Below, piece by piece: positions 1 through 5,746 of a stretch of DNA of 64,000 bases. The DNA lies in assembly GCF_030384885.1 (NCBI RefSeq), contig NZ_CP128613.1. One strand, written 5' to 3'. The stretch is from Escherichia coli (GTDB lineage: Bacteria; Pseudomonadota; Gammaproteobacteria; Enterobacterales; Enterobacteriaceae). The notes below the pieces were generated by a model, which had not been told where the DNA came from, ran no database searches, and was given only the letters and a program-made list of their open reading frames with translations. Every line of letters begins with the position of its first letter. Position 1 is the first letter of the stretch. The position numbers were made by a program, and so were the translations under genes.

Positions 1-3306
<3,306 letters not shown>

Positions 3307-3479
3307 TACTTACCCGCAGAAATCATTCTGCGGGTATTAAGTTACTTTCTTATAAATTAATACAGATTAATCCTGGTTATTTGCTTTATTTATCACCAGT
3401 CATCCGGTATAGTTCTTCATAATCTCTGCAAAATCATCATGTTGTAATATTCTCTCATCACTCTCCATCAAATTTTCTT

Positions 3480-3497
3480 TTTTTCTCCATAATTGGC
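3480..3497 (+). promoter_or_regulatory. BaeR response-regulator box in the spy promoter
   Basis: TTTTTCTCCATAATTGGC matches the BaeR consensus as I recall it (TTTTTCTCCATDATTGGC), about 140 bp upstream of the spy start. Confidence 0.5.
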
Positions 3498-3635
3498 GCA
3501 AAAGTGTTTTTTACACTTTCATTGTTTTACCGTTGCTCTGATTAATTGACGCTAAAATCAGTAAAGTTAATCTCGTCAACACGGCACGCTACTTAAGAAA
3601 GCCGTAATAAATAACTGAAAGGAAGGATATAGAAT

Positions 3636-4121
3636 ATGCGTAAATTAACTGCACTGTTTGTTGCCTCTACCCTGGCTCTTGGCGCGGCTAACCTGGCCCA
3701 TGCCGCAGACACCACTACCGCAGCACCGGCTGACGCGAAGCCGATGATGCACCACAAAGGCAAGTTCGGTCCGCATCAAGACATGATGTTCAAAGACCTG
3801 AACCTGACCGACGCGCAGAAACAGCAGATTCGCGAAATCATGAAAGGCCAGCGTGACCAGATGAAACGTCCGCCGCTGGAAGAACGTCGCGCAATGCATG
3901 ACATCATTGCCAGCTATACCTTCGATAAAGCAAAAGCTGAAGCGCAGATCGCAAAAATGGAAGAACAGCGCAAAGCTAATATGCTGGCGCACATGGAAAC
4001 CCAGAACAAAATTTACAACATCCTGACGCCGGAACAGAAAAAGCAATTTAATGCTAATTTTGAGAAGCGTCTGACAGAACGTCCAGCGGCAAAAGGTAAA
4101 ATGCCTGCAACTGCTGAATAA
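3636..4121 (+). CDS. spy: Periplasmic ATP-independent chaperone Spy
   Basis: 161-aa ORF with signal peptide (MRKLTALFVASTLALGAANLAHA) and repeated LTxxQ motifs (LNLTDAQKQQI, LTPEQKKQF). Confidence 0.93.
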   Translation: MRKLTALFVASTLALGAANLAHAADTTTAAPADAKPMMHHKGKFGPHQDMMFKDLNLTDAQKQQIREIMKGQRDQMKRPPLEERRAMHDIIASYTFDKAKAEAQIAKMEEQRKANMLAHMETQNKIYNILTPEQKKQFNANFEKRLTERPAAKGKMPATAE

Positions 4122-4143
4122 TCTTTCAGCCAAAAAACTTAAG

Positions 4144-4207
4144 ACCGCCGGTCTTGTCCACTACCTTGCAGTAATGCGGTGGACAGGATCGGCGGTTTTC
4201 TTTTTTG
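4144..4207 (+). terminator. Rho-independent terminator of spy
   Basis: Long near-perfect stem (accgccggtcttgtccac / gtggacaggatcggcggt) followed by a T-run (ttttcttttttg). Confidence 0.6.
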
Positions 4208-4245
4208 TTCTCAAACAGATGCAAAAAAAGCCTGATCGCCACTAA

Positions 4246-5746
<1,501 letters not shown>

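Follow-up and report, generated by a model that had tools for sequence, protein, structure and literature searches.

Dual control of spy by the Bae and Cpx systems has been established since 2002; regulation of the gene by BaeR and CpxR is already known and its promoter is well studied. Under ethanol, RNA-seq showed a log2 change in spy expression of -5.76 in a baeR knockout and of -3.0 in a cpxR knockout, and a spy-gfp fusion of Salmonella Typhimurium required both baeR and cpxR. ChIP-exo with BaeR gave two peaks at spy, at K-12 coordinates 1825677-1825711 (peak_1) and 1825823-1825843 (peak_2); with CpxR, ChIP-exo detected cpxP but produced no peak at spy. For the BaeR site, the consensus TTTTTCTCCATDATTGGC is attributed to Nishino 2005 by three citing papers, and a citing paper credits Yamamoto 2008 with the direct repeat motif TCTNCANAA. 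For CpxR, whose consensus is GTAAA-N5-GTAAA, clean boxes could be taken from only three regions supported by ChIP-exo, namely cpxP, yccA and ppiA. Because three boxes are too few to improve on the consensus, we relied on conservation and paralogy and used no CpxR weight matrix. The entries for yebE, ydeH, htpX and ftnB in Kim 2012 showed no CpxR box within 50 nt of the transcription start site (TSS), leaving yccA as the only informative one.

The window analysed here is a stretch of 64,000 nucleotides from a non-K-12 strain of E. coli. Open reading frames and the RefSeq annotation of an identical strain gave the gene order astB-astE-spy-ves-cho. Positions 3307-3635, between the end of astE at 3306 and the start of spy at 3636, constitute the 329-bp astE-spy intergenic region.

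3636..4121, plus strand: spy coding sequence, from open reading frames and RefSeq annotation.

The intergenic region aligned to that of K-12 MG1655 with no indels and three SNPs (3344, 3439 and 3557). In the absence of indels K-12 coordinates could be converted by a fixed offset, a K-12 position x corresponding to window position 3636 - (x - 1825625). By this conversion BaeR peak_1 falls at 3550-3584 and peak_2 at 3418-3438. The preliminary description had regarded 3307-3635 as the spy control region under joint BaeR and CpxR control, and the RNA-seq decreases in both knockouts bear this out. Within the gene, Spy differs from its K-12 counterpart by two residue changes, D to Y and V to A (window 3915 and 3931). 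The T to C change at 3931 costs a TAAAAG hexamer its T; the hexamer lies just 5' of a weak internal TSS, which Kim 2012 attributed to ves (NC_000913.2 coordinate 1823341, window 3944). At the other end of the intergenic region, directly 3' of the astE stop codon, there is a hairpin at 3312-3335 (ACCCGCAG-N8-CTGCGGGT) with no clear T-run; it is probably the terminator of the ast operon. A generic scan for sigma-70 promoters and terminators returned no promoter in 3200-4300, an Rfam search gave only microRNA noise, all of it below threshold, and no plausible small open reading frame was present on the plus strand of the intergenic region. A full-text literature search with the site strings, in their window and K-12 variants, found no relevant match.

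For comparison, 80 spy loci were taken from Enterobacteriaceae genomes, and the upstream regions of 79 orthologues were aligned. Conservation of each segment was expressed as the mean identity to the window base in the 75 orthologues whose identity to the window was below 90%. The values for these 75 orthologues were as follows.

3307-3380: 0.46.
3414-3433: 0.71.
3475-3503: 0.79.
3516-3530: 0.97.
3546-3551: 1.00.
3552-3561: 0.54, which is background level.
3562-3567: 0.98.
3568-3586: 0.92.
3587-3612: 0.38, with length also varying.

The features of the downstream part of the region to which these values apply, and on which the placement of CpxR depends, are the following.

3516..3530, minus strand (inverted relative to spy): candidate CpxR box GTAAAACAATGAAAG, with an extra TTTAC at 3510-3514.
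3538..3543, plus strand: CTGATT, a weak putative -35, 18 bp before TAAAGT.
3546..3551, plus strand: TTGACG, found as such in 78 of the 79 orthologues and as TTGACA in one; 10 bp from TAAAGT.
3551..3565, plus strand: forward CpxR-like repeat GCTAAaatcaGTAAA, reaching across the spacer of the promoter into the -10.
3562..3567, plus strand: TAAAGT, -10 hexamer of the inducible promoter P1, whose TSS is predicted near 3574 (range 3573-3581).
3581..3605, plus strand: 5'-leader stem-loop ACGGC-loop-GCCGT, from minimum free energy (MFE) folding of the orthologues.

In the preliminary description CpxR was placed on the forward repeat at 3551-3565. The string GCTAAaatcaGTAAA is present there on the plus strand, with two mismatches to GTAAA-N5-GTAAA. 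Matches with two mismatches were found 88 times in the window, against 60 expected from shuffled sequences, which amounts to about 0.45 per 329 bp; given 88 comparable matches, the string is real but no better than chance. A second match of the same quality lies within the intergenic region itself, at 3516-3530 on the other strand. The left half of the forward repeat, GCTAA in the window, occurs in 16 variants among the 79 orthologues (GATAA in 30, GCTAA in nine, GATTA in eight, and others), and G3551, the last base of the invariant TTGACG, is the only fixed base within it. The right half is GTAAA in 64, CTAAA in nine and TTAAA in four. The repeat as a whole departs from the CpxR consensus by one to four mismatches across the orthologues, and the K-12 SNP at 3557 falls in its spacer. 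The conserved unit is TAAAGT and not GTAAA: the preceding G varies (G, C or T), while the G and T that follow are fixed. With its left half free, 3552-3561 conserved at 0.54 and its right half coinciding with a -10-type hexamer, the repeat does not support the proposed placement of CpxR.

The explanation for the conservation of the right half lies in the core promoter. The hexamer at 3562-3567 is TAAAGT in 69 orthologues, TAAACT in eight, TATAGT in one and TACACT in one, so that none of the 79 departs from T1, A2, A4 and T6, and the constraint is therefore that of a sigma-70 -10 element. The forward repeat overlaps this hexamer and the spacer upstream of it, a position that is relative to a predicted and not a measured TSS. 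A regulator bound there would sit on the -10 and the spacer, and for this reason the site is unsuited to activation. Judged from sequence, 3551-3565 is most likely not the CpxR site, and the resemblance of GCTAAaatcaGTAAA to a CpxR box would be fortuitous, arising where ten bases free of constraint separate the last base of TTGACG from the beginning of the -10.

The -35 of P1 is less clear-cut. CTGATT or CTGACT is found at 3538-3543 in 63 of the 79 orthologues and is our candidate. TTGACG cannot be the -35 of TAAAGT, because a gap of 10 bp brings the two too close together; it may instead serve another factor, or act as the -35 in an overlapping promoter, TTGACG-16-TAATCT. The overlapping promoter, in which TTGACG (3546-3551) would be paired with TAATCT (3568-3573) and the TSS would lie near 3580, is a live alternative. 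In E. coli it is closer to the sigma-70 consensus (8/12 as against 7/12) and includes the invariant TTGACG, but positions 2 and 6 of TAATCT are conserved in only about 81-87%. Were it the true promoter, positions would shift by about 6 bp and the forward repeat would still be inside the core promoter, filling its spacer. A sigma-E-like arrangement, ACACTT-N18-TCTGA, was rejected, since its spacer is 18 instead of 16 bp and spy rises in a Salmonella rpoE mutant. The hexamer at 3562-3567 is covered by BaeR ChIP-exo peak_1 (3550-3584), just as peak_6 covers the -10/+1 region of mdtA, where one BaeR peak is on the box and the other on the -10/+1 region. By analogy, peak_1 of spy would mark the core promoter, resembling the core-promoter peaks of mdtA and cpxP.

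Downstream of P1 the leader itself limits where transcription can begin. In nearly all 79 orthologues the MFE hairpin begins at the same position, although its loop ranges from 4 to about 35 nt, and 14 sequences carry the compensatory pair ACGAC/GTCGT. The E. coli hairpin has a folding energy of -7.3 kcal/mol (z = -1.95), and the seven bases 5' of it (CGTCAAC) are almost invariant. It may act as a 5' stabilising hairpin. Since the stem-loop must be transcribed, the TSS has to lie upstream of 3581, and a promoter downstream of the forward repeat is excluded. A TSS that databases may list at window 3573, 63 nt ahead of the spy start codon, was given no weight. These observations bear directly on the possibility that CpxR~P does bind GCTAAaatcaGTAAA at 3551-3565 and activates a promoter further downstream. 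Such a reading could call on a repeat with two mismatches, on an orientation shared with the boxes of yccA and ppiA, and on the GTAAA retained in 64 of 79 orthologues. It would, however, have to accommodate a left half that is unconstrained (16 variants), as many as four mismatches in some orthologues and a conserved part that is TAAAGT instead of GTAAA. In S. enterica subsp. arizonae the repeat has three mismatches, and spy of S. Typhimurium is experimentally CpxR-dependent. The conserved -10 required downstream of the repeat is absent, 3587-3612 being conserved at only 0.38 and variable in length, and a TSS there would cut the conserved leader hairpin. We consider activation from the forward repeat unlikely. 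TACTTA (3590-3595), as a -10 that would put the forward repeat near -44, was rejected on the same two counts, being unconserved and cutting the leader hairpin.

The match on the other strand behaves quite differently from the forward repeat. It too has two mismatches to GTAAA-N5-GTAAA, its second half-site being GAAAG and not GTAAA, but TTTAC (3526-3530) is present in all 79 orthologues and CTTTC (3516-3520) in 77, with a mean conservation of 0.97. The comparison with cpxP is instructive. Spy and CpxP are paralogous proteins. The CpxR box in the K-12 cpxR-cpxP intergenic region, GTAAAACAACGTAAA, has 12 of its 15 bases in common with GTAAAACAATGAAAG of spy, most of the spacer included. It is situated on the strand opposite to the gene, as in spy, and the distance from its centre to the start of the TAAA(G/C)T hexamer is 39 bp, equal to that in spy. 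When spy 3500-3590 is laid against the K-12 cpxP promoter without gaps, box falls on box and GTAAAGT on GTAAACT. Because the proteins are paralogous and the alignment is ungapped, the two promoters appear to share an architecture, and it seems that this architecture has been kept since the duplication that gave rise to spy and cpxP. The two differ in the second half-site, GTAAA in cpxP as against GAAAG in spy, and in that CpxR ChIP-exo gave a peak at the former and none at the latter. The CpxR box of spy is thus probably GTAAAACAATGAAAG at 3516-3530 on the minus strand, about 35 bp upstream of the repeat first proposed and on the other strand.

The missing ChIP-exo peak raises the question of whether CpxR acts directly at spy in vivo. 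If it did not, the block at 3505-3530 might serve another factor or an UP-like element, and the dependence on cpxR would be indirect, for example via baeSR. The combination of no CpxR peak at spy with a fall of spy expression in the cpxR knockout would fit such a scheme, as would the presence of baeR in the CpxR iModulon and in regulon lists. It leaves unexplained, however, why the block is identical to the canonical cpxP box at 12 of 15 positions and has the same geometry; the literature, moreover, treats spy as a direct target of both regulators, and CpxR ChIP-exo recovered only about a dozen targets, so that false negatives are likely. A purely indirect effect of CpxR is in our judgement quite improbable.

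The cpxP alignment also bears on a scheme in which both sites are used, CpxR~P activating from 3516-3530 and, at high concentration, filling the forward repeat as well and so capping spy expression as a self-limiting operator. GTAAA does overlap the -10-type hexamer in both promoters (GTAAAGT in spy, GTAAACT in cpxP), and CpxR is annotated as a dual regulator. The second half-site, which is needed for dimer binding, is nevertheless unconserved at spy, in cpxP no partner half-site precedes GTAAACT at a distance of 10 bp, and the G of GTAAA is missing in 15 of 79 species. A self-limiting operator of this kind is very unlikely, and we retain 3516-3530 as the probable CpxR box of the promoter.

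Upstream of the CpxR box lie the elements that we assign to BaeR.

3413..3433, plus strand: distal BaeR site, a tandem of TCTTCATAA (3414-3422) and TCTGCAAAA (3425-3433) with starts 11 bp apart.
3462..3470, plus strand: middle BaeR-like box TCTCCATCA, which departs from TCTNCANAA at one base and precedes the proximal box by 22 bp.
3480..3497, plus strand: proximal BaeR site TTTTTCTCCATAATTGGC, with a conserved core at 3475-3495 and a 21-nt repeat copy at 3483-3503.

The proximal string TTTTTCTCCATAATTGGC had been described as matching the BaeR consensus, and it does so at 18 of 18 positions of TTTTTCTCCATDATTGGC. When the 64-kb window was scanned with TTTTTCTCCATDATTGGC, 3480-3497 was the sole match even with three mismatches allowed, and therefore it is not a chance match. 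The exactness of the match should not be overrated. The boxes read from K-12 are TTTTTCTCCCTTATTGGC for mdtA and TTTTTCTCCACGATTGGC for acrD; TTTTTCTCCATDATTGGC is the majority sequence of spy, mdtA and acrD, and the 'D' at its position 12 stands for the A, T and G of these three genes. As spy is among the founders of the consensus, its perfect agreement is circular and is no independent evidence. The same holds for TCTNCANAA, which occurs exactly three times in the intergenic region, always on the plus strand (3414, 3425 and 3484), and 14 times in the window: the motif was derived from the spy promoter, and the match is circular for that reason.

Better evidence comes from the orthologues and from the Salmonella fusion. 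The proximal core at 3475-3503 has a mean identity of 0.79 in the 75 orthologues, against a background of 0.38-0.57. In these orthologues the proximal box has the consensus TcCTTaTTTtCTcCAtAaTTG, and 52 of them carry an exact TCTNCANAA. The terminal GGC of the 18-mer is unconserved outside Escherichia, leaving YCTTATTTYCTYCAYAATTG as the conserved core. The 5' end of the S. Typhimurium spy-gfp fusion corresponds to window position 3428, which excludes the upstream promoter P2 (see below) and most of the distal BaeR site. Since the fusion is still dependent on BaeR and on CpxR, the segment holding the 3480-3497 box is sufficient. Conservation of its core among 75 diverged Enterobacteriaceae, together with the BaeR requirement of the Salmonella fusion, makes the box look functional. 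The two BaeR ChIP-exo peaks (3418-3438 and 3550-3584) flank the proximal box, and neither lies on top of it. This speaks against occupation of the box but is not decisive, because the exonuclease stops at the outermost bound proteins and interior sites can be hidden.

The distal site was found by a repeat search, in which 3483-3503 (TTCTCCATAATTGGCGCAAAA) proved to be a 76% copy of 3413-3433 (TTCTTCATAATCTCTGCAAAA), over 21 nt and at an offset of 70 bp. Both halves of the distal site are exact matches to TCTNCANAA, its first box has no or one mismatch in 55 of 75 orthologues, and the site falls under BaeR peak_2 (3418-3438). The placement of BaeR at 3480-3497 in the preliminary description thus stands as regards the box itself, which is of the published Nishino type and has a conserved core, but it was incomplete, the distal site at 3413-3433 having been missed. 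The middle box at 3462-3470 is moderately conserved, with no or one mismatch in 22 of 75 orthologues, which is weak evidence for a further BaeR site. A hexamer TACACT (3512-3517; TATACT in 15 species) occurs 14 bp after the proximal BaeR box and inside the CpxR box. The same gap of 14 bp separates the BaeR box of acrD from TACAGT. As the -10 of a BaeR class-II promoter TACACT is unlikely, the ChIP-exo peak of the core-promoter type being at 3550-3584 and not at about 3500-3535.

The distal BaeR site overlaps the start point of a second promoter.

3408..3421, plus strand: promoter P2, with -10 TATAGT at 3408-3413 and TSS at 3421, from the Kim 2012 TSS and conservation.

The TSS table of Kim 2012 lists for spy NC_000913.2 position 1823864, with a 215-nt UTR and 152 reads under non-stress conditions. 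In the window, to which the position converts without indels, this is 3421, 215 nt before the spy ATG. P2 is conserved in the orthologues, both in its -10 (TATAGT, TATACT or TATAAT) and in the upstream TGCTTTATT; with the BaeR repeat these elements take up window 3382-3433. This upstream start under non-stress conditions is the sole published spy TSS that we found. Kim 2012 gives no spy TSS for Klebsiella, and Mendoza-Vargas 2009 contains a spy primer but no spy TSS. The +1 of P2 falls within the distal BaeR tandem repeat (3414-3433). BaeR~P might conceivably act as a promoter switch that blocks P2 and turns on P1, altering both the amount of spy mRNA and its 5' leader, but this we regard as doubtful. 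We know of no description of a BaeR-driven switch between P2 and P1, in a search that was made without the key spy promoter papers.

Taken together, these observations suggest an arrangement that we hold to be likely as a whole: P1 with its -10 at 3562-3567, CpxR on 3516-3530, BaeR at two upstream sites, and a forward repeat that is fortuitous. The start of P1 and the assignment of each protein to its box are what we infer from the comparisons above. P1 would use TAAAGT (3562-3567) with the weak -35 CTGATT (3538-3543) and start near 3574, giving a transcript that opens with the 3581-3605 stem-loop. CpxR~P, as an activator of the OmpR/PhoB type bound just upstream of the -35, would occupy the inverted GTAAAACAATGAAAG (3516-3530), centred at about -51, and contact RNA polymerase at a promoter whose -35 is weak. 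BaeR~P dimers would bind 11-bp direct repeats of the type TTCTYCATAAT-N4-GCAAAA, at the proximal site (3480-3503, about -86) and at its distal copy (3413-3433, about -150), and add activation from upstream. Loss of either regulator lowers the induction of spy.

The value of this analysis is the correct annotation of a well-studied promoter. Users of Pspy as a stress biosensor, and anyone undertaking mutagenesis of the CpxR site, should aim at 3516-3530 and not at 3551-3565, which is a poor target because changes in 3561-3567 would damage the -10. Modest but testable leads are the conserved promoter P2, whose +1 carries a BaeR repeat, the conserved hairpin in the leader, the architecture common to spy and cpxP, and the invariant TTGACG.

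How, then, does spy compare with the other members of the two regulons? With respect to the Nishino box, spy 3480-3497 is a founding member, and the boxes of mdtA and acrD each differ at two positions. A -10-like hexamer follows the mdtA and acrD boxes at a distance of 12-14 bp, so that these boxes would overlap the -35 position, whereas the spy box is placed about 50 bp further from the promoter and the CpxR box intervenes. Upstream of mdtA in K-12 (2153931-2153962) a similar element precedes the BaeR box by 11 bp (TCCTCCATTTT then TCTCCCTTATT), and acrD shows a pattern like that of mdtA (CTCCTTTTTTT then CTCCACGATTG). Such 11-bp-spaced elements would fit a head-to-tail BaeR dimer on direct repeats. 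With respect to the Yamamoto box, spy has the 11-bp-spaced tandem of TCTNCANAA under BaeR ChIP-exo peak_2. Among the CpxR targets, yccA has a perfect box, GTAAAGATGGGTAAA, centred at -50 from a measured TSS, close to the -51 or so predicted for the minus-strand box of spy. Both the yccA box and the ppiA box repeat the half-site perfectly and in forward orientation, unlike the minus-strand box of spy. The closest parallel is cpxP, and the comparison suggests that in these two paralogues the distance and orientation of the CpxR box relative to the promoter have remained equal.
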